A stretch of DNA of 64,000 nt, from contig CM119372.1 in the NCBI GenBank assembly GCA_051294905.1, positions 28,026,001 to 28,090,000 on the forward strand, read 5' to 3'. A program made the translations under genes and the position numbers. The notes under the pieces are model-generated. The model was not told the DNA's origin and ran no database searches. It saw nothing but the letters and a program-made list of their open reading frames with translations. This document shows positions 25,831 through 54,868 of the stretch, one piece after another; within the stretch, counting starts at the first letter, position 1; each line of letters begins with the position of its first letter. Source of the stretch: Botryllus schlosseri (lineage: Eukaryota).

Positions 25831-26035
25831 TTATCCGTTAATGGATATGAATTTGAACTTTGGCTCCGTCGATAAAACTCCAGTCGCCTTTATGATAGAT
25901 GTAGCAGGTGCGTGATGATACTCGACTTTAAAATTTGTCAGGATTTCGATTAACATCAAAAATATCTCTTGCTTGGCAAAGAAACGGCCAGGGCAAGCCC
26001 TAGCGCCTACGCCGAAACCGCTCGTCGTCATGAAT
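25831..26035 (-). CDS. Mito-clan P450 exon 11 (heme motif FGVGARACPG, stop)
   Basis: Acceptor tttacag; 58-bp intron to exon 10; TAA at 25831-25833. Confidence 0.93.
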
Positions 26036-29000
26036 CTGTAAATGATTTAAAAAAAATAATGAATCCCGTTAATTAATGGGATAACTTTGTTACTTTGACT
26101 TGTCTTTATCCAACCATCTTTCCGGTATGCATTCGTGCGGATCTTCGAAGTAGTCTGGGTTCATGTTGCTCGTGCTGTTGATGGTGTTGAGGATGGTGAT
26201 ACCTGAAAAATTTATCCGTTCAAATCGGCTTGCATTTAGCATCCGTCATACAGGCACACATTGATTGTCATGATTCAATTTTTAAATTAATTGGTGGTCA
26301 AAGATACGTCGTCAGTTCGCTAGTTAACACCATCATACTTGTTGATATGGACATAAATAATAGTAGAAATATTGTAATATAATGATATGTTATGTTTGGT
26401 GTCGGTATTCAGAATTTTGAATACAGTAACGGTAAAAAGTGGCAAATGTAAATAATTATATATATCACCGATAATAATAATAATAACGAAAAAAGGTGCA
26501 AACAGCATTGTTGAAAATATCTAGTATAGGCGGAATGTTAGATCGCAGATTGGTAAAAAAGGTGTACCGAGGATCAATGTCGCCTGGCTTCGGTAGCACT
26601 AAGAAATCACGCCAGTCACTCATCGGTGACTCAATTAATCAAAAATGGAACTGATTTCATTTTAGTTTCATAGATTTTTCGATAAAGACTTTGGAGGTTG
26701 ACACGTTTTAGGGTGCACCCGTCACAGTTTATCCCATAAGAACTTCAAAGTTTCTAATTCATAGTTGCCTGCTATTTTATTTAAAATTCATGTACTTTTC
26801 CGGCAGATCGTGTCCGCCGAAAATATTCCCCACGAGAATCGATGAATGGTTTTGAACAGTACGAGATTTGAAATGCGATGGATTCCTTGCTACGTCTCTT
26901 TATCTGATAATGTTTTTGATCATGGATGAAAGTACGAAAAATTCTGCAGGGCGGACATACATCTGTGATTTTCAGACTTATGAATAAGGTATAGTGACTA
27001 TCAGATCTAGTCTGTAGCATATTTTATCCATAGTTATTATGGCGTCAGACTGCGATGGTCCTACCAGAGAGCATGACATATTCTGTTAGAGTGAAGCTGC
27101 CTGGGCCGATGCTTCGCGCAAAATAGATATGGAGTGAACATTGCGTTTTCACATTACACTGGGCAACAACTTTGAACGAAAAATTTGTTGACTTTGATTT
27201 GGCACTTGATTTAGGCCAATTTTAGGGTGCTGATTCCAAAAAGGCCTCAGGTTTTCTTCTATCACGTCAACTTTTTGCTCTATGACATATGCCCAAAATA
27301 TGCAAATTTTCACGAATTTGGCCATACTACTTTTCCATATCATCTAAAAATCCACACTTTTAACATATAATAAGTTATATAGTCAAGGGGCCGATTGAAT
27401 TATGTAGGGAAAAAGTACTTGTATCGATCTAGCCCGATGTTTTCACCCATTTTTGGTCAGAGAATGCAATTATCTGAGGATATTTCACACACATATTTGA
27501 TTCAAACTGCAGGATATGACACGAAAAATAAACATGACATTTACTATCAGCCAATGCCACTTTCAGCTTATTCAGTGTCACCTGAAACTCCTATACGCTC
27601 GATAATTTGGATCAAGATGAAGATTCTAGGGATAGCAGCCCAAATGATGAAAATTTTGAAATCGAAGTTGATTCTGAAAGTAGACATCTTCGGAGCTTTT
27701 AACATCCTTATGAAGTGAGAAAAGATTACTTGGCAAGGTAGAGAAGGTATCTCACTTTCGATCAGGAGAAACAGCCTTTTCTTCGTAGGCCTACTTTTGG
27801 TAGCTCTGTGTATTGCCGTGATACTGGCATTGACATGATACCGTTACCATGGATTACCGGAGGAGTTGGGAATCCCGATTTTCAAGTCAAGTGAATGGCA
27901 AATGCCTATAGGTAGCTCAAAAAAGGATCCTAAAGTGTGCCATTCTCCAAAATGGCAAAGTCTTAGGTGCAGTAACAATTCCACACTCAGTTAGTCTTCG
28001 TGAATAATACAGAAACATTAGGAGTAATACAGAAACATTGAATTGTTGCAATACCACGAGCACGATTGGATCATATGTGTCTGCTTTGAAATATTGTGTT
28101 TTCTAGTGGTTAGACAATAAGGATGCACATGCAACCCTGATACACAGGTGTCACTGCCATATCTTTATGTCGAACAGCAGACATTCAAAAAAGCTAAAAT
28201 ATATTAAAAATTTCCCTAAAAACCTTGACATAGTCAGAGATAGACAAGGAGAAAATGTCCCCAACATCTGAAGATGATGGGGGTATGATACCAGAGTAGA
28301 TTGGAGCTTACTTATTTAAGCTGACTGTTGCTCAAGTATCAAACTAGACAACCTACAGAATAATAGGTTATTAGCGTAAATTTGGACCCTGAAACTCGCA
28401 CTTTATTTGTCATGTAGAAGCAATATTAGTTTAAATCAACCAAATAAAGCAGTGCAAATGTTTATTTGAAGTCTATTGATTCACTTTCGACTGCTTGTGG
28501 TTTTTGAAACGTTTTATACAAGAAGAAAAAAATATTAAAAATAATGCTATTATGTGGGTTTGAGACAATACGGTGGGTACCTAACCCAAAAAATTGACGT
28601 GATAGAGAAAAACGGAAGTCATTTTTGAATTCAGCGCCCAAACGTTAGTAAAAAAAAAATTGTCTGTTCAAAGTCAACAAAAATAGTGTTGAACGGTGTT
28701 ATTACTATTAATATTATTACACACATCAGTGCTACTCTCAGCCTATCCGTCGCTTCTTGCTTCACGACATGACAGTTGTTTTGTACAGTTCAATGCCTTT
28801 TTTCAGGTCTTTCATTTTCTTGCACCCTCTGTCAGGCGCGATTAATTGGTAATTTTTCTGCCGACTTGTAGCTCGGCTCACTGTCATTTCGGAGCTTTTT
28901 AAGTCCCAGCAATTGTAGTGAGGTCGGCGATGAAGAGCCGATATAACCTCCGACACATAGTAGTTGGTTTGAATCGGGATTCGAACAGAGGTGGTCAAAG

Positions 29001-32000
29001 TAGTCAAGAAAGCTACTCAAGTAGAAGTAGAAGTAGCGACGAAAAAATCTACTCAAGTACGAGTAGAAGTACTTCTTCCATGAGCAACCTAAAACTACTT
29101 GAAGTAGAAGTAGAATTGACTGACTTTAAAAGTACTCAAGTAAGTAAGTAGTTGTGAAAACGATCCTAATTCGTTCACATGGATTATAAAAAGGTACAAA
29201 TTGAGCTATGCAAAAGGTGAGGAGCTTGATTCATATTGATGCATACCAGCAGGTATCCAATTTTCGATAGTATAAGCATTCGTCCACATCATGGGATGAA
29301 AATGACAGTATTGATATGGAAATGCGATACTAATCCTCTGTTTACTCAGACAGCACGTTTTAGAAAATATCATGGTATTGCGCACTCCCCCTGATTATAA
29401 GGCCTGTAGCGATTAGTAAACGTTAATAAAAAATATGGTAGACCGTAAAAATGCTATATTGTGTAGCTTCATTTCTGGAAATTGAAGGCATTACTACACT
29501 TGTTTTATACTTCAAGATGTAGGTTATCCAGTCAAAAGAACTGATATCAATCAGAAATCAAAATATATGGTACTGGGAATTGAAAGTGAAATGTATTTAA
29601 TGTCTATAGTAAAGAAAGTTTCGAAGGTTGGTATGCAAAAACAGCTCTAAAACTAAAAAAGTCAGAGTCCACTTTTCCAGATTAGGACACGCCATGGACA
29701 GCTAGATTACGGTATGATAAGTAAATGCTAGATTGCGAAACATCAGTTTCAAACGTTATAAAAGTTATGATATATACTGTGATGAAATATTTGATATGGC
29801 GAAGGGCGACAATGCGGTGCGAATGGAACCACGCCAACCCGCTACCTAAATTATATTCACCTATACTTTCGTGAAATCATACTGGATACTCCGCATTCAC
29901 TGCGCACGAAGCGCGACGAAAATTCTGGGCTGAACTCAACTTTTATGAAAATTAAATGTCGATACTCCGTGAAAACAGCCCCGAAATTTCTCAGGCCTTC
30001 TTCCTGATTGGAGGATTAAACTACTTCTACTTGACAAACTGAAAATAGCGAAAAGTAAGTAAGTAGATCACAAAATATTATGAAGTAGAAGTAGAAGTAG
30101 TAAAATTCAGATCTACTCGAGTAAGTACCAGAAGTAGAGGAAAACTACTTGAGTACTTCGAAAAAGTAGAAGTACTTCGTTACTGACCACCTCTGGATTC
30201 GAACCACTTGCCATCGGTGTCGTGACGTTGGTGCTTAGCCAATTGCACCACTCGCTTCCCTGCGCTTTCACATGATGCGGTCGAAGTTTTACGTTGCTAA
30301 AATTCCATACCTACTGCGGGGAGTATAGATGCAATAAACCAGCTCTCTCCGCCGTCCGTATATGTCAGTTTCCAGCTTTTGACAAACCTTGAGAGCGTAT
30401 TGATGACAGCTTTTCCCGGATACTTACATACTTTAGTAATATTAACACTCACCTAATTCTACTTCTACTTGAAGTAGTTATGCACTACTTCTACTCGTGC
30501 TTGGGTTGAATTTTGAGTCGCTAATTTTATTTCTACTGGAGCAGCTCTCTTGACTACTTTGACCACATCTGTGAATTATTCTAGGCAAAGAGTGGGACTA
30601 AACCAAAAATTATCGTCTGATATCTATCTGTTCGAAATCGAAGCCTACAGTACCGGATACAGTGGTTTTACCTGCAGGAATTCTGTATCCGGAAAGTACA
30701 ATGTCGTGATCGAATTGGCGAGGCAGCCCGTGGGTGAATGGGAGCAATCGGTTAGATTCTTTGAAGAATGCGTTCATATAACTCATACTGTCGATTGCCT
30801 GTAATTACTTGATGGTAATAGAGTTTTAGAACAGGTTGGACGATTCCTTATCGTACCCGTCCCGAAGATATTTGTTCGGGCGTCAACGCCTTGATTTCGC
30901 TGCGAAGCTTGGCTTGTATTTCGCTGTTCATGGCCAAGCAGTATAGGCAAATAGCAAGGGTATTTGCTGTCGCTTCAATTGCACCGAGCAGCACATCCAT
31001 CAAAAGTGATTCCCTTTCCCTGCATACGGTATAGAAATGAATTGATTTTCTGAGTATGGTGACACGGGGAAACACAACACGTGGGACTTGAAAATCGCTA
31101 CATTCGCCACAGCACTGATGCACGAACTAAGTACATGGGATTTTCATACCCCAATTTTTCATGCGCTGCATTGTTTGATTGCAATTAGCGTCATGAATTT
31201 AAACGTACCGCAACGATATAATGCAATATAGCAAATCCGTCGATTCGAGCAAGAAACGCATTTTAGGAATTACAACCGTAGACGTAGACTATATGTTGGC
31301 TGGATGCAAAAATTATTTAGCTACCAACGCGAATGAATTCCATCGTGCTCTATTCCTGCATATAATTTTTGAATGATTCATACGATTTAAAAAAGACTGT
31401 AAAAACTGCTAGACTGTAGTGGTTTTCAATTTTCTCCACATGGTCCTGTGAATAACATATTGATAATGACACAAGTTCTAGCAATGACAACGCTGAACAA
31501 CTGCCAGCCAAGGGGCCAGCTATAGCAACCTAGCAATTAGAAAAACGGTATGTATGAATGCCTATAATCTCCACATCAATTCATCGGGCCAGTTACAGTT
31601 ACAAGTCTCAAATACCTTACTTTCCAAAGCGTTCGATCCTTCCCTATAGTATTAAAACATCTGACATTTTAGGTATGTAAAAAGAACTTCATTTTCGACC
31701 GTCTCCGAGCTCCAGATAAAATTTGGATTAACGGTGACTTATAGGCAGGCCGTGTTATTTTTGGCATTTCGGGAACCAAATGCCAAGACTGCCAAAAATA
31801 AAAACCTTAAAATACCAAAAATAAGGCTATTTGAAGATATAGGTTTTTATGAGAGTTATAGATAGAAAAGTATTGAAATTAGTCTGCACGAAGCGACAAA
31901 ACAAGTGTGTAACGCTAAATTCCCAAATTGAGGTCCGTGAACCCTTCGGAATGCCGCGGCCTACCGTCCAAGGGATCTGTGTAATGCGAATGAAAATCTT

Positions 32001-35000
32001 AAGGTCGGGGCCAAAAAGTCGAGTACTGAAATCTTGGTTTTCATGGATTGATCAACCGAGGTAGTAAATGATATCCAGCGATTAAGAAGAAGATGATATT
32101 TGCCCGCAACAGCAGGGTTTTCTTGGGAATTAGCATATTTCGGTATCCGTGAATGAGAACAGTAATTTTTAGATGCAGCGCAATGACTTGGCATTTTCCT
32201 GTTGTCAGCGCTCGTGCATTTTGTTGCCTCATGTAGCCGACACGCGCGACTCTGGGGCATTCAGCTAAATGCGTACATATAATTTCATTCAATTTGAACT
32301 TGTAAATTAAAATGTCAGCACATGGTGCAATCAGCATTAATAGACTAGCTGTGCCCCGTTGGACAATTTGGATATAGTTTCATCAATTAACAATTGAACA
32401 TACACACACAATGTAAAATGCCCCAGTCGCCAAGAATTAACCCCCATCAATACTTATCATACAGATGCCTACAAACATCCAGTTCCTTACTGTATTTTTG
32501 TTTGCCGGTTGGAAATTTATTCATATCATTTTGAATAATAAAGCCACTCGTGATTTATAACCATTGGTTGGCGAGCGGGGGGCTCCGCGATCCATAACAT
32601 AACATCGTTGGGTCCAATGTCACAGTTCTTTTCGATGTTTATCTTTTTGAAGCCGCGGCCCTTTCTACTAGTTCTTTCCATTCCTTGTGAGTGCTTTCTT
32701 TCGTCAGGTCTTCTTCTGGGCTTTTTCGTCGCCGTAAGAACGGCAACGGCGGGGTAGAGGAGCCCAGATAAACCTCCGACGGGAATCGAACCGGCTTCGC
32801 TTATCGTTACCACTACGCTATCTCCCCCGCCAATCGTGTCAGCAACGATGTTGAATAGGTATCATAATTGGTATTGTGATCTGTGGGAACGCAAGTAGTT
32901 ATGCGCACATATTGAATCGACTATTCGGATTACAGATTTCAGAAGTAGTCGGTTTTGTATTAGGTGAATTGACTCTCCAACACCGTTGTCAATTCGGTTT
33001 TTACTCTCGCCGTCAAAAATGCTGCCAAAAATATAATCTGAAAAATGCCAAAAATAAGCTATCTTTGGCATTTTTAGCATATGCCAAAAATAACATTGCC
33101 TGTCAAGTGTCGATAACTGAGAGGTTGTGTCACATTTTCCAATAGGGACATAGTTTCATCAATGAACAGACATCACGCAAATGGCCTCCAGATATTTACG
33201 TACCATACATACATAATGCATATAGATTCGGTCCTTTCCTAGTTTTTCATTGCCGGGTGGAAAATTTTCATATTGTATTGATTATCAAAGTCACTAGCGA
33301 AGGCTGCGATCCAAACGTGTCAGAAACCCTTTTGAACTGCTATCATAAGTATTTTGACCTGTGTGAATGCCTGCACTTTTGCAAGTATAGTGAATTGACT
33401 ACTAAGAATAGTTATTGCAGAAGCACTCGGCTTTGTATCGGGTATATATAGTCTCTAACATTCGGATTTAAATCTTGCTGTTTGATGACAGAGTGTGGAT
33501 ACTGCATGTTTTGGGACTTCCGTTTCATAGGAGAGACCAAACTGAAACGTTTCTTAAGGTTAATTCGAGCCTATAAATGTGAATTCAAGGCGATGCCAAA
33601 ATTGCCAAAATAAAATCTGAAAAATGCCAAAAATAACGCACCTGCTTATAGGTATAGAGACAACGTCAAATCCCTTTAGGTAGGACCTGCGTATATTCCA
33701 GTGGGTACAGTATTTTCTACTCATAATAATTCAAATATTTCAAAGGTGGTTTGTATATAGTCGGAAATAATTTACCAGACATTTATAAATAAGTTGCTAT
33801 ATTGCCCATAGGGTTGCATTTAAATCAAATGGTTGTTTGAAACAATTTGTTTAAAACATGTTTTAAACATTGTTTTAAACAAAGGCCTTTTAAAAAAATT
33901 GTGTTCTTGTAAGTTGCATAATTATGCCAAAAATTTGTAAATACTTTTCAAAAAACATGCTCCATGAGCCTACGGACGATTACCATCCGATATAGCCGAC
34001 GTATACTATATGCGTATATGGGATGGTTGGAACCCGCGAAATAGTCGGTTCAACAGCTGTAGTACGTAGATATAGAGCATTGGTACGGAATGAATGTTCT
34101 GATGATGATGACCGTCGACCGTAAAAATGCCTCATGACGATGTAGTCCTGGTTAAAGATATTTTTGATCCGTATATGACATGGGTTGGAAGCCTATTTCG
34201 TCAAAGCAGCTATATTTACCCTATATTTCAATCGTCAATACCAATCCACTATGACGTCACAATTTAATATTCGCGACGCCATTGCTTGAAAAAAAACAAA
34301 TAAACAAAAAAACAATAAAAAACATGTTTTAAACAAGGGCCTTGTTTCAAACATGTTGTTTTTAATTGATTTTTGTTTTAAACATAACCCTAATTGCCCA
34401 TAATAATTACAGCTTCAATAAGAGAATCGTCATCAATGAAACAAGAAATAGTGTTATTCGTAAATATACATACTCTTCAGTGAGGGTTTCTATGCTCATG
34501 ATTTCCTCCAGTAAGCTGCCTTTTATGCTCTTTTTCGACATCTGTTCATTTACGATGGTGAGCATGAAGTTTTTCGAATTCAGGAGACATTTCTTCAGGC
34601 CCTGCAGTGTAGAGAAATAGCTTTAATCAGCCAAAAATTCTGAAATATTCATGTAAGCATGTCTATCTGTCGAAATGATTCAGCTGTAAAATTCGCGCTA
34701 CGCAATACAGCATAAGAACTTTTCGGAAATCGCAGCAATAGGTGATAGCAAGACGGAAGAGATTCCAAAGTCTTGGGTACCACCCGCAAGATATGTTCTC
34801 AATTATCTAATGTGCATTTGCCACGCTGCCGGACATGAGCATGCGCATTTACATATAGTAGGGCTTTTCTAGTTCTCGGTCCCAATTTATGTTCAAGTTG
34901 GGTTTTTCGTCTTGTAATGATTTTTTGAGTGGTATTTGTTTTGGGTTGCTTCAACGACTATCGCAAATGCTTCGACCTTCATTGCAGCATACTTTTTATG

Positions 35001-41000: not shown

Positions 41001-44000
41001 ATTATTATTGTAAATTTAGCCGGTCTTGGAGTTACCTGCTTACGTTTGACCAAAAGTTTGCACTGTTCATTAATTGCGCCCAAATGGATTATACTAGGCG
41101 ATATTTTTCAACTTTTTCATTATCTTTTAAAAACGCTGTATTGAGTTTAGCTAAGTCGACAATGCTGATTCTGAATTTGCAATCAGAATCCACTCATCCC
41201 ATCACACTTTTTTGCAAAAATTCAACAGCAATTTTGCTAAAAAACGGTTTTGTTAGGGGCGTTTGAGCTTCATTTCAGGTCAAGAGCTCCGTACATGAAA
41301 CGAAACACACCCTACAACAGACCTGGGCAAAGTGCGACCCGCGGGACAAATGCGGCCCGCGAAGCTATTCTCTGCGGCCCGTCAAAGGTTGCTTGGAATT
41401 CAAAATATAAAACTTGCTTTTTGAATGACTAAAACCATAGGCTGTATCAAATGATCAGGAAATTCGTTTACTTTGAAGCCTGTTCAATAATATGCCACGA
41501 TTACGCTTGCCCACTAACCTCGCTTGCGTAATCCAGATTCAAAATAAAGGCAATGTGACAAAGTATGAGTAGCAATTGAAGTCACAAGAAATCACTCTTT
41601 CCATATAGTTTAGTTCAAACCTTCTTAGTTGCCATTGTCACATTACGCATCATACTGTATGTGTTTCAAATTGTTACGTGATACGTTTCCAAATCCCAAA
41701 TTTTCAAAACACGTCAATCAGTACTCGCGATTACAATATGACTCATCATATCTACCATCCATAAAAAAGCCAAAAAAAAAGGATGCCGAAGACTGAAATT
41801 CAAAGATGTTCTAGGTTCACACTTTAGAGCACTAAACATTTGTATACTGGAGTCAGGGGTAAACCGGTCGTTTTAGTTTTTGTCGCCGAGATTAAAGAAT
41901 GAAATAAAAGTCGGTCTTATGACAAAAACACGAAGCACTCGGTCTAGGGAAGGCGAAGCTCAGAAAAACTGCAAGCTTCGCTCAACATAAAGGCTATTTA
42001 AGCTGCACAGTGCATAGTGCACACTGCTCGAAAGGCAGCGACCAAGAAAACAAGCATTTTACGATTGCATGTACATTTCAGTGCAGTGATTCTCGAACTG
42101 GGGGCGTGAAAGCATCAGAAGGGTGGCGCGAAGCCGAAGTTTGATAATAATCATGTTCAACATTGTTTCCAATCATGACGGCAAATGGATATTTTTTTAA
42201 TCAACCGGCAATTTCTCATTACCTATTAATATCAAGACATTCACTGAGCAGCGTATACTAACAATGTAATCAAGAAACAAAACTTAAAATACGGTTGAGA
42301 ATATAGCTAAAAATGTTCACTCGGCCCGCCAACGTATTTTCTACTTCTCATGTGGCTCGCGGAGGAAAATAATTGCCCACCCCTGCCCTACAAGGCTCTT
42401 AACTTACTCAATTGGATTTGGTATTTTGTTAGAAATCAACCTTCTAAACCATCGGTTCTCAAACATCTTTAGACACGTCCTCCTTGATGACAGTGAAAAA
42501 TTTCGCGTCATCTTATTGTCATATCACCGAGTGATGCGTTATAATGGATTCTTCTCATTGGTACCCCTCGAAAGAGCCCCATTACCATCTATCACCAAAA
42601 TAAGCTGTCACTTAAATGAGATGTCACTCAGTTTCGCGTCTACGTAAAATGATGTGAAGTGCAACTTGAAGGAAACTCATAATTTTACTCACCGGCTTCA
42701 GGAAATACCTCCAGGGACCTCCGATTGCTCCGGCTCCGACGTACTCCAGCATCCTCGACGACCCCTCAAAAACAGCAGCAACTTCAGTCGCTACATCCTC
42801 CCGAAGCAAGCCTATACACGAATATCCCCAATCAGACGGAAAGACAAGATGTGATAGTGCCGAAACGACAAGTGAATTCAAAAAATCGAATCCTAGATTG
42901 ATTTGAATGATCCGACCCAAGTAGTGAAAAATTGCTTACCCACTTGGGTATTGAAAATAAATATTCCAGCCATTTCGAAGGCCCACACTTGTAAGGCTTC
43001 TGCATAACCTGGAATCTGAACGAAGAAAAATATCATTTTATTGCAATCCATTTAATTGAGATACCAGAGGTATTTAAACGTCAAAGGTAGTCATGTGAGA
43101 ACGCCTACTTCTACTTTTTCCTGGTGACGTTAGTAGCACCTTTCACCTTGATGAATCACAACCTATGGAGATAACCAATATCCATTTATATATAAAATAC
43201 CTGAAAATACAGCGCCTTACTTACAGGCATGTTTTCAAGTTTAATGTGTGTGACAGTATTTTATCTGCAATTATCATTTATTATCAACATCAATATAATG
43301 CATCCACGCTGCAAATCTTGAAACGAAATTGTTGGCAGATGTGCCCCAGATCATCAAAGTTTCTTTCTTAGTGCAGCAAGCTAGTAACATCCGGCGCCTG
43401 ACGTCGCATATATTTTAGTGACGCTTAGTATTTTGGATAAGTCTTTCAGTGGAATCTCAACCATACCATTTCGAAGCGATGTAGGTGATTAACTGATTAT
43501 ACTAGGGTTACCATATTTTTGTGGCACAAGTTCTGGACGTTCTTTAGCGCCCACTAGCGGATTTCAAAATGAGGTATGAGCACATTGTCGATCAATATGA
43601 CGTCACACCAGCAAAGCTTTGTCTATCGACAAGAGGTGGTCACGATCCGGTTCAGGAGTATGTGGTTGTGTGTTGTAGTTGTAACCAGGGCCGAGGTCAC
43701 ATTTTTCAGCTCCCTCCAGCCCAAATAAACACTGATCTTGGGTCCACCGTAGGGTAATCGATTCAACTGCTGGGGGCTTACTATATGGATCTGGTCGTTA
43801 AATGATTTGAATGAATAATGTCAATAATATCGATTCTTCCATATATTACTACATACAGGGTTGTAATGACTCGAGTCACGATTTCTTTGTGACTCGACTT
43901 GACTCGAAGTCATTTTCTTGAAATGGGAAAATGACTCGACTCGACTCGAGTCAATATTTGGATTGACTCGACTTGTACTCGAGTCATTGACTCGGCTCAA

Positions 44001-47000
44001 GTCATTGACTCGGCTTATTCTATATGACTTGAAGACGAAGAAATTTGCGAATCGTAATGGCTAGATCAACGCATCTGACGAATTCTGCCGACATCGCTAT
44101 TTGTCACCACTGCTTTTGTTGCACTAGTCTGATATCAGATAGGCCGCCGTAAGAACAACAGACAATGGTACATAGTAGCAATGCATTGTACAAAATCATC
44201 CAGTTATGAAGAGGTAATAAATCCTCCGCAATCAAAGTACTCAAGACTTTTCAGTCATACAAGCAGAGAATCGAAGCAAAGTTCAATTAGAGCCAATGCA
44301 ATGACTCAGATGGTCAAGTACTTGGAAGAGACTGATAAGCTCATGTGTAGATTTGAAGGCGATGATTATTTGCATTTTTGGCGACTAGAAAGAATGAGTA
44401 TCCAGTGCTCTTCAGTGAGGTTCAAAAATGTTTGTCAATTCCTGCATCTAGTGCACCAGTGAAAAGTGTATTCGGTAGATGTGGATTTATTCTAAGGCCA
44501 TGCCGCTTTAATATATCTGAGGATCTCCTCTCCACTTTGGTATTTTTGAAGTGTAACTCATCATTGATTTGATCTGCCGTCTGTGAAAACACACAATACC
44601 CTCCGTCCATTTGACGTTTTATTAGGTATGCGCATTGTGCACGTGAGTAATAATGTATGGCTAATGTTGTGTGATGTTTGTACAATAGGGCTGTTGAAAA
44701 ATAACTTCTTTTTTATTTTACTTGATGGCTACTTGATAAAATTGTTATGTTGCATCAAAAGAACACTGAATCTGGTTAAATTTAAAAAAGTAGAATCCAT
44801 GATATGAGAAGAGAAAATTTTGGATTTGTAAATTAATGGAGTATTTTTAGTGAGAAATTCTTTCATATAATATAATTACATACTAGTGGTAAGTCGACTA
44901 TTTTTTCATATCCAAAATATCCTACTCTAATTACTTCGCTTCTTCTTGTTGGAATTGAGCCAAATTTGCTATGAATCATATTTTTACACAATCTAACAAT
45001 ATCATGAGGTAGCCAGTAAAATTCGAAAATCTCTATTCCTAATTAATCCAAAATTTTCTCCCACAGCATAACTTTCTACCGGTCGGAATTGAGCCGAATT
45101 TGAGTTTATTTTCAGGCAATCTAACAATTCTAAGAAGTAGCCGGAAAATTGGAAAAAATGTTTTTTAACAGCCCCAAATATTTCTCCAATGCTGTAACTG
45201 CGATGTAGTCTGTAAAGCAGTTGGGAAAACCTTTGGTAATATCAAAAGGTATCTGTTTTTGGTCCCTGCCCATAGCTGCATGCACGCTTTTACAGCATGC
45301 TGGCCTGGTGAAAATACCCCTACATAAACATGCATCTGTTGATTCTCTATCACCTTATTTGTCGACGTGAATTCGTAGGTTCTCTATCAGATAGTATGTA
45401 GACTTGAATTCGTTGGTTCTCAATCAGCTATTTGTGAGCTGTCGTCGATGTGGTCGTAATAAAAACTGAATGCTTGTATTTTTGATCTATCAGACCGACA
45501 AGATTGATTTTAAGTTCTACGATTAGTAAAGTTATCATATTGGCGGCCTGTCTCGTCTATCTGTAGCATCGGTAAATGAGGCCAGGAACTGTCCGTAATC
45601 TACCTAAATATACATGTGCCAAGACTCTGGTAGGGACAAAATAAGCATGTTTGGCAAGCAAGGAATTCGATATCACCCAAGCAGGATTGAAAACTTGAGA
45701 TGAACATGACTTCAATACTGTGACTTGGAGTCGGACTCGAGTCATAACACTATGACTCGGACTTGACCCAGTAAACGGTGACTTGGACTCGGACTCGACT
45801 CGGTGATGAATTGAAAATGACTCGACTTGACTCGAGTCAAAACCACAAAAGTAAGATTGACTCGTGACTCGGAACCATGTGACTTGGTTACAACCATGAC
45901 TACATAATTTCGATCCTCTCTCCGCCCACATGATCAGAGTTAGCGGCAGAGCTGGTGGAGAATGATGACTTCGAAAATGCAAGGCGAGCGTAATCGTACA
46001 TCGTTACGTCATGTTCATGTCACACTGAAAAAATTATTTATCAACATAATGCCGGGGCGCACGGCACCACTGAGCTATATAAACACCACACATCCGGTGG
46101 TTTCCAACCTTTTATGGTCGTTACTCCATTTCCGATTTGAAAATGTTCCGTTCCCAGCTTAAAGTTTGATAAGCTGATTACTAATTAAAGGTAGGCACAT
46201 TTGCCCAGATTTACTCACGGCCTGTTTTGAAAGCTGATTACGTTCAAAACCTTTGCGAACCCCAGAATAAAGGCAAACTACCCCCAGGTTTAGAACCACT
46301 ATCTTTGAATAAGCATCCCAGCGACCTAAACCGATTCTATGAATATACCATTATCTTGTAATTGCAATTACAATTAGACTTATTTTAGTAAATGAATGTT
46401 AATTACATTCTATTTTTTATCGCAGTTTTTACGAGGGTGGTAGTCCCCATATTAAAACTAAGATATGTGATACTTAATCGCGCGCAGCGTGACGACAATT
46501 TCATGTAGTATAAATCTGCCCAAAAATAATATTGACTATGTTGATTTACGAAAAATTATGAGCTTACTTCAAGCCTTCAAAATTCCGGACATGTCCGGGC
46601 TATTCCGGACGTATGGCAACCCTAGATTATACGGCACCTCTGACCCGGATAAAACAATGAGGAATTCTGGGTTGGGAAAGGCGTGGAATCAGGATTTTCA
46701 GCCTACGGGCCATGACGCTGTTTCCAGTGGGCAGCAGAGCCAGTATGCCATATATCTAAGGCTGTATTACCGTCCTTTTAATATTTGTCATTATCTGTAA
46801 GGACATTGCCATTGCGAAAGTAATGTTTTTAGTGATCCGCTTCCCACATTTTGCAGTAAGGTTTTTATTGAACGCTAGTTTTTAGTGGGTTATGAGCAAA
46901 GGAAGTTGAAACTCCTAGCGTAGAAGGAAACATATGAACTCCAGTAATGTAACACTAAATTTGCTATATTACAAACCTCCAGATTCTCATCTCTTCGTCT

Positions 47001-50000
47001 CTCCATATACGATACCATCTCTTTACATACATCTCTTTGTTCCTTGGAGTACTTCCACACTGTTTGCTTTTTTAGTAAAATTCTGTTTACGGGCTGACGC
47101 AGCTGAAAGAACGTCGGTAAAGTTCATCATTGTCAAGACCCAAAAATATGACACTTTGTCACAAAAACGAATTGCTCTGTGTATGACCATAGGACCATTT
47201 TTATAATCTGAAATGCGAGAGTCTGACTGCGGTACGGTGAACGCCTACACCAGGGGTTCTCAGCCCTTTCTTTGCCGTGGCCCATTTTCCGGTTTGAAAA
47301 TGTGCTGTGGTCCACCTCTAATCTTCAAGTCATAATCCTGTTCAATGCGTGGTAATCGACGGCGCCGATATTACTTTGTCTCTAAAATATGCGCATTTTT
47401 CTCCTTATGTACTGATGAAATTAAAATAGAAATAGGGGAGATGTGGTACCGATGGATCACTGGGACCGAAAATACTTTAAAAATTCTCCATGATAATTCC
47501 ATGATCACACTCCACGAATTTGTGCACAATTGCATGCTGGCAGTATCTTTCCTCACATGCAAAAAAATTCGACCGGCGTGAGTTATGGGGTCTGTGACGA
47601 ATGATTTACGTTTTAGGGGGTATAAAGTAAATTTGGATAGACATTGGCATTTTTCTATATCACCTTTCAGATCAACAAAACCGCCATCATTTTTGATGTG
47701 AAGTATAGGGCTTGTATCAGGCTATATAATGGCACATATTTTTTTAATCAATACCATCCTCGAGTTGACTATATTCAAGTCAATTACAATATTTATGGGG
47801 TGGGGGACCTATGGTACCATGGCCAAATCAAGCAAAATAGATGGACCAACTAATCCCGTAACAACAGAAACTCGCCTACATATATATAAGCTGTAAATCA
47901 TAGTTACCTGTGGTGTTTTATCGCTATTACGAGGTATTTGAAAGTCAAAATGTCGATATGCGGGTAATATTTATGTGGCATTAATTTTGTAAATTTTAGC
48001 GTAAATCAAAACAAGATTTTATGCCAACATTTGAGTTGATATAATCTAATTTATTCTTGAAGGTCGCGACGAAACATTCTTCATTGACTTGCTGTAGCTT
48101 AGCTTATAGTGCACACCAGAACAAGTGAACTAATTTGAGTTTTTGAGCGTATGTCTCATAGGTCCCATGGTCGTGTGCCTTTGGACCCACTGGGTGGGGA
48201 CCGATGACACGTTCGAGCAACAAATTTTAAACGTTTATAAATATTTTTTGTAAAGGCGGATATTCATGTAAATGTCTGCGATAGGTAGAGCTTGTATCGA
48301 GGTGTTGAGACAGCAAAAGATCTGCTATTCTCGACTGAAGATTTGAGGGCCAGAGATCATTTTGCAATTTTTGATCCATCGGTACCACATCTCCCCTACG
48401 TCAGGGCATGAAGTCGCGCGAAGCGCGACGAAAATTTTCAAGTTGAATGCATAGTTTCCAACAAACGACCAACGAAATAATCTTGGGCACCTTCTAGCTC
48501 CCCCAATTGGAGGTTTGGGTGCAGCAGGTACGGTAGATCATATGCTAAAACTTCTGAGTATTTTATGATCGTCCGCTGCTCCCGTCGCTTCGCGAAACAT
48601 AATGTTCGAATTCCTGCATTCACTGTGTGATTGGGATTTTAGTTCAACTATTGAGGGGAATAGTATAATCATTCTGGGCCAGCTTCAAACAATTCATTGG
48701 TGAATGGGGTACTAAAGGGAAGTGGAGAAAAATTTTCTTATTATGTATGCTGTACGTACAATGTACATTGTATGTCACGTACTGAACCAACTGAAGTTGC
48801 GATGTCGGAATATTCAATCCAGTGATACTATCAATTCATGTGACTTTTTCATCATGTACGTTGATTTCCAGGCATGACATTTTAAACAGACTTCAAATAT
48901 TAATGCGCTCCGCTGAATCCCCAATCCATCACTATTCGTTGCGGTGGTGCAGTATACCTTCACCAGAAGTTGCTAATAATTTGCAATTATGGCCATTTTT
49001 AACTTACAATAATACGACCTGCCGAAGTACAGTGAATCTATACATCAATTACACTTCATTCCGAGTTTATCGCACACTCCATTCAACGGCATACGACATT
49101 ATGACCCTGCCGGAACCCGGAATACTTGGTTACTTCAGTATTACCTTCCGGGTATTATGTACGCAAAATTATCTTAGTTGCTGTTAGTCATAGGTATCAT
49201 AGCCAGTGGAAAAGCCGCCGTTTCTGCCTCCCATTCTCGACTTGAAATGCTGACTCCATACGTACCACTACATCTCATCAGAGTCGGATGAAAAGCTTTA
49301 TGTAGCCTACGTATAATCAACTAATATGAATTTATTTTCTAAAATTTTCCAAATAGCTCTGTGGCCCACCTCAAATGCTCTTGTGGCCCACCCTTTGAGA
49401 ACCTCTGGCCTACACCAAAGGTGTCAAACATACGGCCAGCGGGACGTATCCGGCACGTGAAGCAATTCTGAGTAGATTCACAAATATCTATATTATCAAG
49501 CTTATTTTTAGCAAATGCTTATAGTTTTAGTAAGAAATACTTCGAGACTAAATAATCCTTCAAGACAGCAAATGTCGAGTATGTTCACTGTTCACCGGCC
49601 ACTTTATAGCCACCCAACAGCGGTCTTGTGGTTTCACTCTAATCGCCGTTAGAAACAAGCAGCTGATATCAACACCCAGTTCGGCGAAGGCAAAAAAGTG
49701 CACGCAGCATGGAGTTCATATAGTGTTATGGACAAATGAGCCAAAAAACTAGTTATTCACAAAAGCAAAAACGGCTTTTCTAAACCGGTATATCCAGGAT
49801 ACACGAAGAATATAATATGGTTACATAGAAATATAATCCAAATATATGTGGTCGCACTGCTGTATCGCTTCTAACTCAAAAGGTCCTCGCCTCCAGAGAA
49901 ACCTGAATCGCGACTTAATGATATATAACACTATTCAAATGGCCAATCATCGTATTTTTTTGCCAATTCAAGTGTTTGCGAATAGAAGGTGATGTTGCTA

Positions 50001-53000
50001 GAATTGAACCTGTATAAACCGTAACATAATGTAATATACTAATATAGACTTGAGAGTATAAGGTATTTAATGAAAAAAGGGGCATGGATTATGATGTATT
50101 GTTCTGGATTCATTTGAAGTGTCCGGCCCACTAGCAACCTGAAGGTTTGAATCCGACCAGCGACGCATGTTCAGTTTGACACCTCTGGCCTACATTGATT
50201 GCATACGTCATTATTTGATCAGAAAATTTTGGCATCACGCTAAAACAGTGGTTCCCAACCTTTTTTGTCTCGTGCCCCCCTTGGCTGATAGTTGAGCTAA
50301 ATTCCCCCCTATGAAAAAGTTGCCTGTGACTGAAAAAATGTGCTTTTTAACGCGCAACTATTTTTTGACTAAGCAATTGATGGCCAAACATATTCAGATA
50401 TGTCCGAACTATGGTGAATGCGGACCGCACTAAACTTTGATAAAGTACAGTCAAATTTGACCGGTCGGGTAGCCGCTGACGAAAAATAAATCACCAAGTC
50501 CTCATGCTATGGATTCGAGTTGAATCGATGAATTTGGTACGGTATGTTTTTCACGTTAGCTCATATGTTGGCTTAAAAAGTTAAACAATTTCACTAGCGG
50601 CCTTGTGCTGAATTCAGCTTGACGTTATCCTGCTTAGTAGCAATTTGGTCGAGAGGATGTCGCGGTCCCAACGAAATCGTCTCGTGAGCCTCACTTTATC
50701 AGGGGGTGTAATAGCTACGGAATGCATTTAAACACACACCTAGCTTGAAATCCGCCAAAGAAACATACAATTGTAAAGAACCAAATTCTACTTGACAGTT
50801 CTATACCATAAAAATCTAAAAACCTTGTGAACCCAGTGTATCTTCTGATACAATGCCAAAGCCAGATTGTCCCTTAAAAAATTAAGCCAGATTCCCCCCT
50901 AAAAATTTCGAAATTCCCCCCAAGGGGGGAATTCCCCCCCCCCGGTTGGGAAACACTGCGCTAAAACATGAGTGAATTGTGACATCCCAGTCATGACAAT
51001 CATGGATCGTTCATATCAAGTAGCCTACCTATTTCAGACCATATCAAGGCAGAAAATATTCCTTCATTGTCTCGCGCATAAAGGAAATGCTTAATTATAT
51101 TCGTACTCGATGCCAAGTTTCTCCCTTTTGATTCCCTATTGAGTCGGGATATCCCATCATCGTTTTCAACTCTCTCACTGCAGGCAATTCGAACCGAAAC
51201 GGCATTCTGCCTTCTGATCGGAAGAGTCTTTCCGTATCTTCCTTCGTTCGACAAAACACCCAATCTTAAAAAAGTACAAATAATACTGCCGCGCAACTAG
51301 AGGATTCACATTTCCAGATCTTACATTTCAATCCAATCCTTTCCTTGTATATATCACCGCATTCCTGGTGCCGTTTCATCCACAATTCATGAAGTCTCGT
51401 GATGTCGAATCCGCGTAACGGCGTGTAGTCGAGGGCCGTACGAACCAGCGGAAGGCCCGTCGGCTCAGGTATTTTATCGAATGGCAATGGATTATAAATG
51501 TCGTCTGAAAGGTGTTTTCATCCGTGTTATAAGTGATATCTTCAAAACCACCAGAAGATTAGACACGCATAGTCTAAAATATATTGAGTACCAACAAGGT
51601 ATTAGTTATTGGGAGGATTTAAGATTGTTTTGTTTACAAAGCTCACTCACGCACGTGGTGGGGATGGTGCGAACATGAGGTTCACGTTCGCGTTCGGTGC
51701 GTGAGCCTCAGAAATTTTAAGGGTCGCGTTCGCAAACGAATCTTGGTAGGTTCTACACTGTGAACCTTTTATATAAATTAGAATGTTTTAAGTTATCAAA
51801 ACGTCATTGGTTGAAATAATTAATTTCCCTTTCAACTTTGGATAAGTCTCTGGATGGCGCTGGTAGCATGGAATGAACTTCTACGCGAAACTAAAACCAG
51901 GCCAATTTCAGCAATTTTTTTGTCGTGTTTGAAAATTCTGCTTGTAATATTCCACTTATTTCAGTTTGTGTATATTTAATACTCTCTACGGTGATTGCTG
52001 TTAGCTTGACCCGCAATCACACAACATCACGAATATAATACACTATATCAGCGGTCGGAAACCTTTTTCGTCAAACGAGCCATATTGGCTTATTTTTTCC
52101 ATTTTAACTTCCAAAGAATCATACATGTCAATCAACTGTTACGTCACAATTGAAAATTAGTGACGTCATGGTACCACTTATACAAACTCACTACATGAGA
52201 TTCGTCGTGTGCGCCTCATTTTCTCTGTAGAAACTCGTACTCGTGCTGGTAACCTTATTCAAGAATGCGAAACTTGAGTTTCGAGAATGCATCGTCGTGA
52301 TGCTCCTTTTAAATGCGAGAACCAATGATCACATGCGTAAGTGGAGCCACACATGATCACTACAGCAATACATACCAAATGTTAGGTGTGATACATCAGT
52401 GACGTGGGGTCAGGGGAGCCAAGTGAGGCAGATCGTCACTTGTCGCCAGGATGAGTGAACGAAAATTTTGAAACCGACAGATAGCCTACTGTTGATATTT
52501 TCTATCGATGTTCATGAATGACTGCATTTTTAAACATTTTCCTCCCAAATTTAGGCGACTTGCATATTTAATATTCGATAATAAAGCCCGAAACGAGAGG
52601 TAAGGCACAGACGCGCTAAGCTTCGTCATTGATACCGCAATTCATAGTAAATAGCTTAGAATTTATAACTGATAATCATTGAATGTAACTGTTGCACTGA
52701 TTCCGAAAATCTAAATACTGATCGACTTCTCAAGTCTCAAAGTATTCGGTGGGAACATATAACGTGTCGCTAAACGCCTTCATTTTATCGACGGTACTAC
52801 GTAGCGACTTACCAATCAAGCACGTGGGTAGCAATGGCGTTGTTTGTAATTCGAGTTTCCACGGCGGCTAATTTCGCGCCGTAGATCAGGAAGACCGTGC
52901 GTATCTATTTTATAACTGCGTTGTCATATGGGCATCGCCATCTTTGATCAATCGATCTATTGTGCAACTCAAGATTTCGAGTCGGGTAGCCTACATCGAA

Positions 53001-54868
53001 CTCACGAGTGATATTGGTCGCGACAGTAACTTAAATTCGGTGATTTTGAAAAGAGGGGTCCGAGCTAACCTGAAGTCGGCATCGTCTTTACCTCTCGCAT
53101 ACATGTTTATACCGTCACGAGAATAATTATTCTGATCGTGATTCAAATTTACTAACAAGTTGCTGCAGTATTGAACCATTCAGTAAAAAAAATATTTGGC
53201 AAAGAGCCATATCTTATACCCAAAAGAGCCACATATGGCTCGCGAGCCATAGGTTCCCGACCGCTGCACTATATAGATAGCGAACTGCACTGGCTCAACC
53301 AATCAATTGGCAATTTACGGAAATCGTTGTCAAAGGTAAAAGTTGTGCTTGTGTATGTAAACATGCAGATATGTGAGAAATTCAATATTTTTCGGACTGA
53401 AGCTAAAGGCGCGTTACAATACTACTCCCTTGGAAAATGAAGAATAAAATAGAATTAGAAACATTTAATCCGGATCGATGCAAACTTCAACAAGCCGGTT
53501 CAAGAATGCATGCTCATATCCATCAATCCTATATTATAGGCTTACCATATTTCGGAAATGAAAAAAGAGGACACTTTTTCAGAAATTTCAGACATGCAAA
53601 ACTGGAGAAGAATTCTCAAAAACCGGTAAATTTCTCCCACTCCATGATCGGTTGACTAAAAAAAAAAAAAAAAAAAGGTCTTCATTTCGCTGAGAGCTGA
53701 AATCACCGCTTTTCCCTCCGAAAAACACGCCGGAGCTTCACTTCTGCGCTAATTCGCGGCATATCACTCGCTATTTCCTCTAAATCTGACCTAAATTTTC
53801 AAAAAAGAGGACAAAATCTCAAAAAAGAGGACAAAAGGGCGTCCTCCGAGGACACTTTCAAAAAAGTCAAAAAAGAGGACAAATCCTCTTAAAAGAGGAC
53901 GTATGGTAAGCCTACTATATTATATAAACGCATAGTTTTGTACGTACGTACGTTTGTACAATGTACAATTGTACATTAGGGTGGTTCAAAAAAAAAGTTT
54001 TTTTTCCAAATCTCACTCGCCTAGTGACTAAATCGTCAGGTTGTCCAAGAAAACGATGCACACCAAATTTGACTCAATTCCAACCAGTAAAGGCCGTGCA
54101 ATCTTGAACTGAAATTTTTAAATTAATAATAAAAATAAAAAAATAAAAATTCTCAAATTTTTCTGTCAACCCCATGAAATTGTTAAGCTGTCTTCAAAGA
54201 CGATGCAAAACAAATTTTAGTCAATTCTGACTAGTAGAAGCGGAACTATTTGAGTTTTTCGTTGATAATCCCCGATTTTTGAACAACCCTATTGTACATG
54301 CGTGAATGTAAATTGTAGACAGGGCGAGTTGACGAGCTCAAGCGTGACTATTCCGACTTGATATTTTCGAAAGACAATGGGCTATTATTGCATTTTGAAG
54401 AAACGAATCAATTTGTCTCTCAAATATGGTACACGCGTCGCCAGAGGTTCATGTCCACGTTTACGTTCATAGCGAACCTTTTATAGAGGAGTTGTCAGGG
54501 GTTCACACCATCCCCAGCACGTGGGGAAAATTCTACACCACACTCATAGTTCAACAAGTTTGATGCCAAATAGTTAGTTTATAGATTTTAGATTTCGTCA
54601 AGCACAAAGTATACTGTTTCAGTAGATTCCCATCACTTCATGTTACTGAAATTGTTACAACAACGGGGTAGGTTGTCGTGAATCAATGCAGCAGAATATA
54701 ATTTCAAAAATTGCACTCCGAGACTGCACATCTCATGCTGTCTGTGACAAAAATTCGAAAACAAAACTTACGGGCGGGTACCGACTCTGTCGCCGTGTTC
54801 GATTTTTGCGTTGCCCTGATGCTTTTACTTCCCCGCAGGACTTTGAACAACATCGACCTCGACTGCAT
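25831..54868 (-). CDS. Mitochondrial-clan cytochrome P450 (CYP11/24/27-like), 11 coding exons, 495 aa
   Basis: Exons 54772-54868, 51325-51504, 51107-51264, 46977-47102, 42940-43015, 42693-42811, 34474-34601, 30857-31019, 30672-30798, 26094-26202, 25831-26035. All introns are GT-AG and the phases join into one open frame (1488 nt). Motifs: PFDKIPEP, LFRSEGRMPFR, GETWHRLR, VWAFE, GAIEAT, KESNR, VLSGYRIPAG, PERW, FGVGARACPG. Confidence 0.9.
26094..26202 (-). CDS. Mito-clan P450 exon 10 (NMNPDYFEDPHECIPERWL)
   Basis: Acceptor tttttcag, donor AA|gtaaca; PERW motif. Confidence 0.92.
27157..28698 (+). mobile_element. Decayed Chapaev3-like (CMC) DNA transposon
   Basis: Ends CACTGGGCAACA / TGTTGAACGGTG with longer imperfect inverted subtermini and a 3-bp TTA TSD. 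Frameshifted relics VYCRD..EELGIP..SEW, CAILQNGK, LLQYHEHDWIICV resemble Chapaev3 transposases. Confidence 0.75.
28845..30260 (-). mobile_element. tRNA-derived SINE split at its B box by a family B insertion
   Basis: Rejoined, it reads GGAAGCGAGTGGTGCAATTGG...GGTTCGAATCCC...GTCGGAGGTTATATCGGCTC...GCTACAAGTCGGCAG. Confidence 0.78.
28986..30195 (+). mobile_element. Family B element
   Basis: TIR CAGAGGTGGTCA; perfect TSD GATTCGAA. Confidence 0.93.
30672..30798 (-). CDS. Mito-clan P450 exon 9 (K-helix FFKESNRLLP...VLSGYRIPAG)
   Basis: Acceptor ttacag, donor G|gtaaaa; ExxR motif; 58-bp intron to exon 8. Confidence 0.92.
30857..31019 (-). CDS. Mito-clan P450 exon 8 (I-helix LLMDVLLGAIEATANTL)
   Basis: Acceptor tgcag, donor CGG|gtacga; I- and J-helix sequence. 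Confidence 0.9.
31746..33644. mobile_element. hAT-type element (GCCAAAAATAA motifs) with nested inserts
   Basis: Ends CAGGCCGTGTTATTTTTGG / CCAAAAATAACGCACCTG; perfect TSD CTTATAGG. Confidence 0.85.
32630..32828 (-). mobile_element. tRNA-derived SINE with short head, shared-core family
   Basis: A box TAGCGTAGTGG and B box GGTTCGATTCC, directly followed by core GTCGGAGGTTTATCTGGGCTC; 3' limit approximate. Confidence 0.72.
33809..34392 (+). mobile_element. MITE family I (TGTTT/AAACA motifs)
   Basis: TIR TAGGGTTGCATTT / AAACATAACCCTA; perfect TSD ATTGCCCA. Confidence 0.9.
34474..34601 (-). CDS. Mito-clan P450 exon 7 (GLKKCLL...SLLEEIMSIETLTE)
   Basis: Acceptor ctacactgcag, donor GA|gtatgt; phases 0/2 fit. 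Confidence 0.87.
35799..38056 (+). mobile_element. hAT-type element F with (GGAGCC)n repeats
   Basis: TIR CAGGGCTTTGGAGC / GCTCCAAAGACCTG; perfect TSD ATTGTGGC. Confidence 0.93.
37195..37902. mobile_element. Buster-type MITE nested in F
   Basis: Ends CAGAGATGGCCAA / TGCCCACCCCTG; perfect TSD ATATAGAC. Confidence 0.85.
38416..39150. mobile_element. Buster-type MITE related to 37195-37902
   Basis: Ends CAGGGGTGGGCA / TGGCCGCACCTG; degraded TSD atcgatat/atctgtat; shared internal GCAAGGACAGGA..ATTCG and CGTCGACGATCT. Confidence 0.7.
40007..40402 (-). mobile_element. MITE family I, inverted relative to 33809-34392
   Basis: Reverse-complement similarity with an internal deletion; TSD gttacgat/gttgcgat. 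Confidence 0.85.
41318..42385. mobile_element. Buster-type hAT non-autonomous element
   Basis: Ends CAGACCTGGGCAA / TTGCCCACCCCTG; perfect TSD CCCTACAA. Confidence 0.87.
42693..42811 (-). CDS. Mito-clan P450 exon 6 (LLREDVATE...PWRYFLKP)
   Basis: Acceptor tatag, donor |gtgagt; phases 1/0 fit both neighbours. Confidence 0.85.
42940..43015 (-). CDS. Mito-clan P450 exon 5 (IPGYAEALQVWAFEMAGIFIFNTQVG)
   Basis: Acceptor cttcgttcag, donor G|gtaagc; E-helix W-x-x-E motif typical of mitochondrial P450s. Confidence 0.87.
43856..45898 (+). mobile_element. hAT element C (GACTC repeats) with transposase dimerisation-domain relic
   Basis: TIR CAGGGTTGTAA / TTACAACCATG; perfect TSD ACTACATA. Confidence 0.92.
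44181..44572 (+). pseudogene. hAT transposase C-terminal dimerisation domain (ZBED-like), frameshifted
   Basis: YLHFW then, in the next frame, EYPVLFSEVQKCLSIPASSAPVKSVFGRCGFILRPCR...LLSTLVFLKCN. Confidence 0.88.
46977..47102 (-). CDS. Mito-clan P450 exon 4 (LRQPVNRILLKK...RRDENLE)
   Basis: Acceptor ttctttcag, donor |gtttgt; completes the C-helix WHRLR. Confidence 0.87.
47251..49407. mobile_element. Buster-type hAT element hosting the TA-targeting element
   Basis: Ends CAGGGGTTCTCA / TGAGAACCTCTG; perfect TSD GCCTACAC. Confidence 0.88.
47435..48396. mobile_element. Non-autonomous TA-targeting element (Tc1/mariner-pogo-like)
   Basis: Perfect 25-bp TIR GGGGAGATGTGGTACCGATGGATCA flanked by TA on both sides; superfamily inferred from the TA TSD only. 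Confidence 0.9.
49416..50187. mobile_element. Buster-type hAT MITE inserted at the TSD of 47251-49407
   Basis: TIR CAAAGGTGTCAAAC / GTTTGACACCTCTG; TSD gcctacac/gcctacat. Confidence 0.87.
50246..50958. mobile_element. Buster-type hAT MITE
   Basis: TIR CAGTGGTTCCCAACC / GGTTGGGAAACACTG; perfect TSD CGCTAAAA. Confidence 0.92.
51107..51264 (-). CDS. Mito-clan P450 exon 3 (WVFCRT...LFRSEGRMPFR...GETWHR)
   Basis: Acceptor tttttaag, donor |gtacga; 60-bp intron to exon 2. Confidence 0.88.
51325..51504 (-). CDS. Mito-clan P450 exon 2 (DIYNPLPFDKIPEPTGLP...KERIGLK)
   Basis: Acceptor tttcag with an in-frame stop just upstream; donor T|gtaaga; proline-rich P450 hinge. Confidence 0.88.
52049..53266. 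mobile_element. Buster-type element nested in J
   Basis: TIR CAGCGGTCGG(A/G)AACC; perfect TSD CACTATAT. Confidence 0.9.
53537..53914 (+). mobile_element. MITE family D nested in J
   Basis: Perfect TIR TAGGCTTACCATA; perfect TSD CTATATTA. Confidence 0.93.
53977..54291. mobile_element. hATm-like MITE nested in J
   Basis: TIR TAGGGT(G/T)GTTCAAAAA; perfect TSD TTGTACAT; internal direct duplication. Confidence 0.85.
54772..54868 (-). CDS. Mito-clan P450 exon 1 (presequence MQSRSMLFKVLRGSKSIRATQKSNTATESVPA)
   Basis: ATG at 54868, donor C|gtaagt, and phase 1 matches exon 2. Arg/Lys/Ser-rich with no acidic residue in the first 27 aa. Confidence 0.75.

Follow-up and report, generated by a model that had tools for sequence, protein, structure and literature searches.

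A mitochondrial-clan cytochrome P450 of Botryllus schlosseri carries alanine in the alcohol column of its I helix, while its spliced gene is intact and both the heme ligands and the acid, Glu310, are kept. The acid-alcohol pair of P450s delivers protons for compound I; the D/E-T form of this pair, a usual rather than defining feature of the superfamily, is absent from the 495-aa protein, which reads E310-A311. The gene was found in a 64-kb window, the whole stretch of DNA that was analysed. At a probability of roughly 0.55, the favoured reading is that the enzyme would still work as a monooxygenase, with a substrate pocket that is altered and probably narrower.

Gene structure

The P450 gene lies on the minus strand from 54868 to 25831 and comprises 11 exons, 1488 nt in all, encoding 495 aa and a stop; the spliced frame has no internal stop, and all 10 introns are bounded by GT-AG. 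The model was rebuilt independently from open reading frames and splice signals, with exons joined by coordinates, and agrees in its 495-aa length with a sequence-only reading of the window that had described an otherwise intact gene of 11 exons with ExxR, PERW and the heme Cys. Its parts are as follows.

54772..54868, minus strand: exon 1, aa 1-33; ATG and in-phase GTAAGT donor; mitochondrial-targeting-like peptide
51325..51504, minus strand: exon 2, aa 33-93; AG/GT; matches ascidian and amphioxus mitochondrial CYPs
51107..51264, minus strand: exon 3, aa 93-145; PxR Arg116, and the C-helix WxxxR begins
46977..47102, minus strand: exon 4, aa 146-187
42940..43015, minus strand: exon 5, aa 188-213; E helix
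42693..42811, minus strand: exon 6, aa 213-252; F-G region
34474..34601, minus strand: exon 7, aa 253-295; G-H region; alone without a Pfam match
30857..31019, minus strand: exon 8, aa 295-349; I and J helices; Pfam p450 E 2.5e-7; PDB alignments; X3 contig piece ending at 31018
30968..30985, minus strand: I-helix motif GAIEAT, aa 307-312; GGT GCA ATT GAA GCG ACA
30971..30973, minus strand: codon GCG, Ala311; catalytic-Thr column
30672..30798, minus strand: exon 9, aa 350-392; K-helix ExxR (30759-30748), Lys362, Arg376; Pfam p450 E 3.2e-8
26094..26202, minus strand: exon 10, aa 392-428; meander PERW
25831..26035, minus strand: exon 11, aa 428-495 and stop; heme loop, Cys442 (25995-25993), Glu451; Pfam p450 E 2.4e-12

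Exon 1 is a predicted exon and the least certain of the 11, with the second Met, at 54853, as an alternative start; it is supported indirectly by the length of the X12 contig. Pfam PF00067 matches four of the five exon frames tested, three of them above the curated cut-off, and the spliced protein contains ExxR (E363-R366), PERW (418-421) and FxxGxRxCxG (435-444, with heme Cys442). The conserved residues kept are R116, W143, R147, K362, E363, R366, R376, R440, C442, R445 and E451. Among these, K362 in the K helix and R445 in the heme loop are presumably the basic adrenodoxin-binding residues, putative in this protein; the residue after R445 is F446, as against K or R in the ascidian relatives. 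The first 27 aa include six K/R, eight S/T and no D/E, with a highest 19-residue hydropathy of 0.26, and such a basic, acid-free N-terminus lacking a hydrophobic anchor appears targeting-like, a composition that fits a mitochondrial presequence within the predicted exon 1.

A broken pseudogene was considered and rejected, there being no stop, frameshift or damaged splice site across the 1488 nt and 10 introns. Four very short introns, at 51265-51324 (60 nt), 42812-42939 (128 nt), 30799-30856 (58 nt) and 26036-26093 (58 nt), sit among others of several kb, and a contig of run X3 keeps intron 8 and some of intron 9. Within the 64-kb window, tblastn found no second copy of the 11-exon gene, the sole other P450 being an unrelated one at 10587-12131 on the plus strand. 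That gene is intronless and encodes 514 aa (Pfam p450 E 6.6e-95); its I-helix motif, EGHDTV, has an intact Thr and resembles CYP4 rows in published motif tables of Capitella and cnidarians, and its single exon near the 11-exon gene suggests a retrocopy. An Rfam scan of the window gave no match.

Alanine 311 and the register of the I helix

The sequence-only reading had singled out the GAIEAT motif of exon 8 and its E-A pair in place of E/D-T, and both observations hold: the motif lies on the minus strand at 30985-30968, Ala311 is encoded by GCG at 30973-30971, and gapless alignment puts E310 and A311 in the acid-alcohol columns. When the spliced protein was aligned with mitochondrial-clan CYPs, as that reading had proposed, A311 fell on the catalytic Thr. 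Pairwise phmmer alignments of exon 8 agree, being gapless over 42 residues with rat CYP24A1 (3k9v, AAVETTAN) and over 40 residues with ancestral CYP11A1 (9njw, GGVDTTSM), with A311 on the first Thr in both.

An alternative named at the outset, with the following Thr in the catalytic position, is an arrangement that the alignment scores argue against. Residues 296-335, compared ungapped with 21 homologues, score 68.1 at shift 0 and between -10.6 and -30.9 at eight other shifts. Looping out A311 and shifting the right half lowers the score to 15.7, a loss of 52 points, and an insertion with a compensating deletion reaches 68.3 before gap cost, which is no gain for two mid-helix gaps. The register with T312 in the catalytic column was accordingly rejected, since it costs either 52 points or two mid-helix gaps for nothing. 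The Styela protein, the nearest relative of full length, gives when modelled with an alignment a pLDDT of 87 and one unbroken I helix at 311-342 (its single-sequence model has a pLDDT of 31.6). The position assigned to A311 rests on sequence comparison, the structural model being that of the Styela relative.

Transcripts and the allele at codon 311

The exon 8-9 stretch is present in 20 of the 24 listed sequencing runs, drawn from seven studies; none of these 20 runs is on record as RNA, the 'RNA?' run types being guesses. Read mapping covered 17.5 kb outside exons 1-4, and its output was dominated by intronic repeats. One of two informative records is the X12 contig of 1791 nt, which includes a piece over 25700-26035 with no differing letters that starts exactly at the exon-11 acceptor. 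This piece begins at record position 1310, and with 1283 coding bases upstream in the model a 26-nt leader is left. The contig explains the depths of two clean bins (11.4 against 11.51 expected and, for exon 8, 1.63 against 1.65 expected) and under-explains those of two others (8.17 against 5.84 expected and 10.8 against 5.21 expected). It fits what the full spliced mRNA would give. None of the 15 joints listed, out of 337, is a splice joint of the gene. In the raw-read RNA run X24, of which about 6% was read, mean depth is 0.63 over 30372-30955 and 0 over 30956-31539, the bin that holds the codon. A short repeat in intron 7, at about 32617-32792, reaches a depth of more than 12,000 in X24 at 32674-32750, with reads continuing into unlike sequence; it has no Rfam or Pfam match and is probably a dispersed, highly transcribed repeat.

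These data bear on the reading, judged very unlikely, that the enzyme is ordinarily of the E-T type and that its alanine stems from an assembly error or from a rare allele. A single transition, ACG to GCG, would suffice for it; the codon is not among the 40 of 1309 difference rows listed, and one letter differs, at an unstated place, in the X3 piece that spans 30618-31018. However, run X1, a possible source of the window DNA, holds all 46 of the sampled words, and because the chance that none of them overlaps the codon base is about 0.04, an assembly error is improbable. Word shares in other studies also favour GCG: ten runs from four other studies give 0.52, where 0.49 is expected with GCG in spliced exons 8 and 9 and 0.42 with ACG, and X3 gives 0.80, where 0.79 is expected with GCG and 0.72 with ACG. 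Each of these shares favours GCG by only about 2 to 1, and they are an indirect measure of the codon and not independent of one another.

Place within the mitochondrial clan

That the protein belongs to the mitochondrial clan, as first proposed, is upheld by sequence matches nearest to CYP11, CYP24, CYP27, CYP10 and CYP44. The support comes from PDB matches of exon 8, from searches with exon 2 (29 matches at E<=0.001) and then with its Ciona match as query (43 matches), and from the sequence and fold matches of the Styela relative. In a tree of 26 rows, which has no outgroup from another clan and so resolves the sub-branch rather than the clan boundary, the 495-aa protein lies within a 13-row ascidian 'cytochrome P450 10-like' clade (support 100/100), a name given by automatic annotation. 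Its nearest neighbours are the partial proteins P0003 and P0009 (97/96), and it is joined to Styela with weak support (80/70). The sequence of both partial proteins stops short of the I helix; what P0003 shows in those columns, 'ETY', looks like intron read-through, and both were excluded from the counts.

The clade includes Styela clava XP_039260487, Clavelina lepadiformis XP_076822910, and Ciona intestinalis XP_002127166 and its paralogues; each genome has several paralogues of the family, with five clusters in Ciona intestinalis. These proteins share N-terminal, K-helix and heme-loop signatures with the 495-aa protein. At the acid-alcohol pair they differ from it, since all 12 of those rows that include the I helix (eight named and four unnamed, one of the unnamed lying outside the tree) read D-T, against E-A in the Botryllus protein. 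BLAST identity to them is 34-38%, with the best score to Styela, and the best identity to any full-length relative is 38-39%. Because identity falls below 40%, a separate CYP family is possible by the usual naming rule, as given in a section of PMC12467003, and the 495-aa protein may represent one.

Further afield, the top PDB sequence matches of exon 8 are the vertebrate mitochondrial enzymes CYP11A1, CYP11B, CYP24A1 and CYP27. For the Styela relative, mitochondrial CYPs make up the first 11 of 25 PDB sequence matches, and its model is closest by fold to CYP11A1, CYP11B and CYP24A1 (TM 0.80-0.83). All of the vertebrate mitochondrial CYPs keep D/E-T, and CYP27-like rows are about 22-28% identical to the 495-aa protein. 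Vertebrate CYP11, CYP24 and CYP27 are shown to be its relatives at the level of the clan, so that their substrates cannot be carried over to it, and the hydroxylated sterol or lipid substrate first suggested is conjectural, as it leans on these distant relatives. Searches for an I-helix orthologue yielded none at E<=1 among 17 candidates when exon 8 was compared with longer proteins, and none at E<=1 in the single candidate among proteins of similar length. Exon 11 found 71 loci in metagenome contigs, where the two full-length matches are only 25-28% identical and read D-T, and an ESM Atlas search returned generic P450 clusters only.

Frequency of the missing threonine

In 48 aligned relatives, a set drawn largely from a word-based search and so biased towards the consensus, the catalytic-Thr column holds T in 46, S in 2 and A in none. 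Both Ser rows are one amphioxus cluster. In amphioxus (P0014 and P0034), the Branchiostoma belcheri protein deposited as a side-chain cleavage enzyme (BAF61103) has E-S as its acid-alcohol pair. Two published motif tables extend the comparison. The Capitella table in supplement S5 of PMC4229089 has 84 rows, of which five lack a hydroxyl residue and eight have Ser, and a table of three cnidarians in PMC8110760 has 83 rows with the motif, three of them lacking the hydroxyl, besides two degenerate CYP20 rows. Pooled by hand count, 8 of 167 rows lack the hydroxyl and none has Ala, so that the alcohol is lost in roughly 1 in 20 members of these invertebrate P450 sets; passages of both papers describe the I helix as a variable or the most variable motif. 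No mitochondrial-clan P450 with Ala was found among the 48 relatives, in the two motif tables or in literature searches conducted mostly outside subscription journals and with few supplements, and searches of the same literature found no functional study of the ascidian CYP10-like clade.

Conservation, divergence and the state of the gene

Across columns that are invariant in nine relatives, the protein keeps 66 of 79 residues (0.84), compared with 0.21 at variable columns; this is the lowest retention of the 10 rows tested, the others keeping 0.90-1.0. The losses are unevenly placed: five of the six invariant columns within 303-319 are lost, and outside that stretch 8 of 73 (Fisher p 0.0003); given 311, four of the other five invariant columns in 303-319 have changed (permutation p 0.0014). 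Since the 13 losses cluster in this way, change appears focused on SRS4 and not spread, a pattern that would fit an altered active site better than general decay. Three of the clustered I-helix changes are to residues that also occur in non-tunicate mitochondrial CYPs (A308 in 7 of 36, E310 in 5 of 36 and L316 in 21 of 36), so that part of the cluster may be a retained ancestral state, which counts against the remodelling of the pocket. At residue 134 in exon 3 (51107-51264), a position that depends on the alignment, 47 of 48 other rows have Gly (one has a gap) and the present protein has Ser; this Gly is also lost in P0003 and P0009 (Leu or Thr), making it a change shared throughout the sub-branch, close to the B'-C substrate loop.

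A 73-aa gene call, P0001, is 77% identical to exon 2 with intron 2 read-through (window 51269-51484), and by its sequence is taken as a close paralogue or relative of the 11-exon gene. Between exon 2 and P0001, 11 of 53 residues differ, and in the translated intron 5 of 18 do (Fisher p 0.53); the comparison has only 18 intron codons, some of them splice signals, and is compatible with change in either copy and with relaxed or positive selection. On such small numbers, the divergence hints that the protein has evolved fast, whether under relaxed or under positive selection.

These observations invite the view that selection has recently been relaxed on the gene as a redundant paralogue, which would still be transcribed but be poorly coupled or inactive, with Thr-to-Ala as one tolerated step of decay. 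The several paralogues per genome, the similar divergence of exon 2 and the translated intron, the lowest retention of invariant sites and the very low coverage in X24 all favour it. Against it, the gene is free of broken splice sites and interrupted frames, the protein retains its heme and fold residues and has its losses gathered in one helix, its terminal branch, at 0.72, lies close to the median of the tree (0.64), and the P0001 comparison fits change in either copy and either type of selection; decay of this kind is judged unlikely.

Precedents and probable mechanism

Engineered loss of the threonine is generally damaging. In the passages of PMC9260165 on this subject, P450cam T252A loses hydroxylation and is uncoupled, and CYP17A1 T306A is left with 6-8% of hydroxylation and with about 50% of lyase activity on 17-hydroxy substrates; the effect of such changes is also covered in part of PMC9112060. 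Three natural cases of Ala have had different outcomes.

The first is EryF (CYP107A1), a bacterial macrolide hydroxylase in which, according to sections of PMC6430224, hydroxylation is assisted by the substrate; the sequence-only reading had cited this precedent correctly, with Ala present and a substrate hydroxyl used. Its residues Glu244-Ala245-Ser246, Cys351 and Glu360 (given in part of PMC10741444) correspond to E310-A311-T312, C442 and E451, the Glu standing nine residues past the heme Cys in both enzymes, although the last two matches are general P450 features. Substrate assistance is shown in EryF and would be no more than a conjecture for the 495-aa protein.

The second is the plant CYP710A family of sterol C22-desaturases, which have acid-Ala-(S/T) in SRS4 and for which passages of PMC9368853 and PMC11311414 describe the Ala as needed. 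The same order of acid, Ala and Ser/Thr is found in the 495-aa protein. However, the family-wide FxFAxQDA(S/T) motif of CYP710A is absent from it and Ala occurs in one gene only; compared with F(L/M)F(A/S)QDA(S/T)(S/T)S, it shares the acid-Ala-hydroxyl order alone. The Botryllus enzyme is not a CYP710A member, and at most may work alike.

The third is CYP9Q4 of the bumblebee Bombus terrestris, which is reported in a passage of PMC6675907 to have Ala at the catalytic-Thr site. According to sections of PMC5887109, it makes 5-hydroxy-thiacloprid more efficiently than the Thr-bearing CYP9Q5, N-demethylates acetamiprid and has a narrower substrate range. This animal enzyme shows a natural Thr-to-Ala change beside Thr-bearing paralogues, as the 495-aa protein does; it is a microsomal member of clan 3 and differs in clan, compartment and redox partner, so that the analogy is one of mechanism and not of kinship.

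From the missing threonine, atypical chemistry had been proposed. The proposal stands as a possibility, with EryF and CYP710A as precedents, and is not required as a default, since CYP9Q4 still hydroxylates. In its fullest form the enzyme would be a desaturase like CYP710A, or would use ferric-peroxo chemistry, as a C-C lyase or deformylase, on a sterol already hydroxylated, with Ala selected because it curbs oxygen rebound or makes the peroxo state last longer. The CYP710A order with its needed Ala (PMC9368853, PMC11311414), the lyase activity left in CYP17A1 T306A, the sterol and secosteroid side-chain enzymes CYP11A1, CYP24A1 and CYP11B as nearest solved structures, and the clustering of changes in SRS4 all speak for it. 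Weighing on the other side, the only natural-Ala animal precedent found is an ordinary hydroxylase, the CYP710A motif is otherwise unmatched, and a sterol substrate is conjectural. Desaturation is, moreover, possible with the Thr in place, as CYP27C1, cited as a retinoid desaturase, keeps its catalytic Thr. Atypical chemistry is accordingly rather unlikely, and it is doubtful that an animal mitochondrial-clan P450 has turned to sterol desaturation or peroxo C-C cleavage and converged on the I helix of CYP710A and EryF.

Most weight falls on a working monooxygenase because CYP9Q4, the natural-Ala animal enzyme, offers the closest situation and performs ordinary chemistry. On this reading the protein would be a functional, mitochondrion-targeted and adrenodoxin-fed monooxygenase in a fast-evolving sub-branch of an ascidian-specific CYP10-like family. 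O2 would still be bound and compound I still formed, with protons probably arriving via Glu310 and ordered water; where the bound substrate has a polar group, this might help their delivery. The lost side chain would chiefly reshape SRS4, with good coupling tied to a smaller range of substrates. The reaction would most likely be ordinary oxygen insertion, as hydroxylation or dealkylation, into a lipophilic compound, perhaps a sterol or a lipid derived from one, as clan kinship would suggest, or else a compound taken in with food or used in defence. Counting against a working monooxygenase are the usual uncoupling of engineered Thr-to-Ala mutants, the retention of 0.84 together with the exon 2 divergence from P0001, and the fact that the Ala of CYP9Q4 is known from a published report and not from its sequence.

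Significance

Natural P450s with Ala are of a known kind; what is new, as judged from literature searches mostly outside subscription journals, where a prior mention is possible, is Ala in a member of the mitochondrial clan. The enzymes that make active vitamin D, bile acids and steroid hormones have uncharacterised cousins in the mitochondrial P450s of tunicates, which form the sister group of vertebrates. If the enzyme is an ordinary hydroxylase, it would be one more CYP9Q4-like case, of specialist interest only. If it is a desaturase or lyase, it would have converged on plant and bacterial solutions, and were the atypical reading true, an ascidian lineage would have gained a signal or defence compound of its own, derived from sterols or lipids. 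A natural Thr-to-Ala change beside Thr-bearing paralogues provides a clean test of adrenodoxin-fed O2 activation without the alcohol residue.
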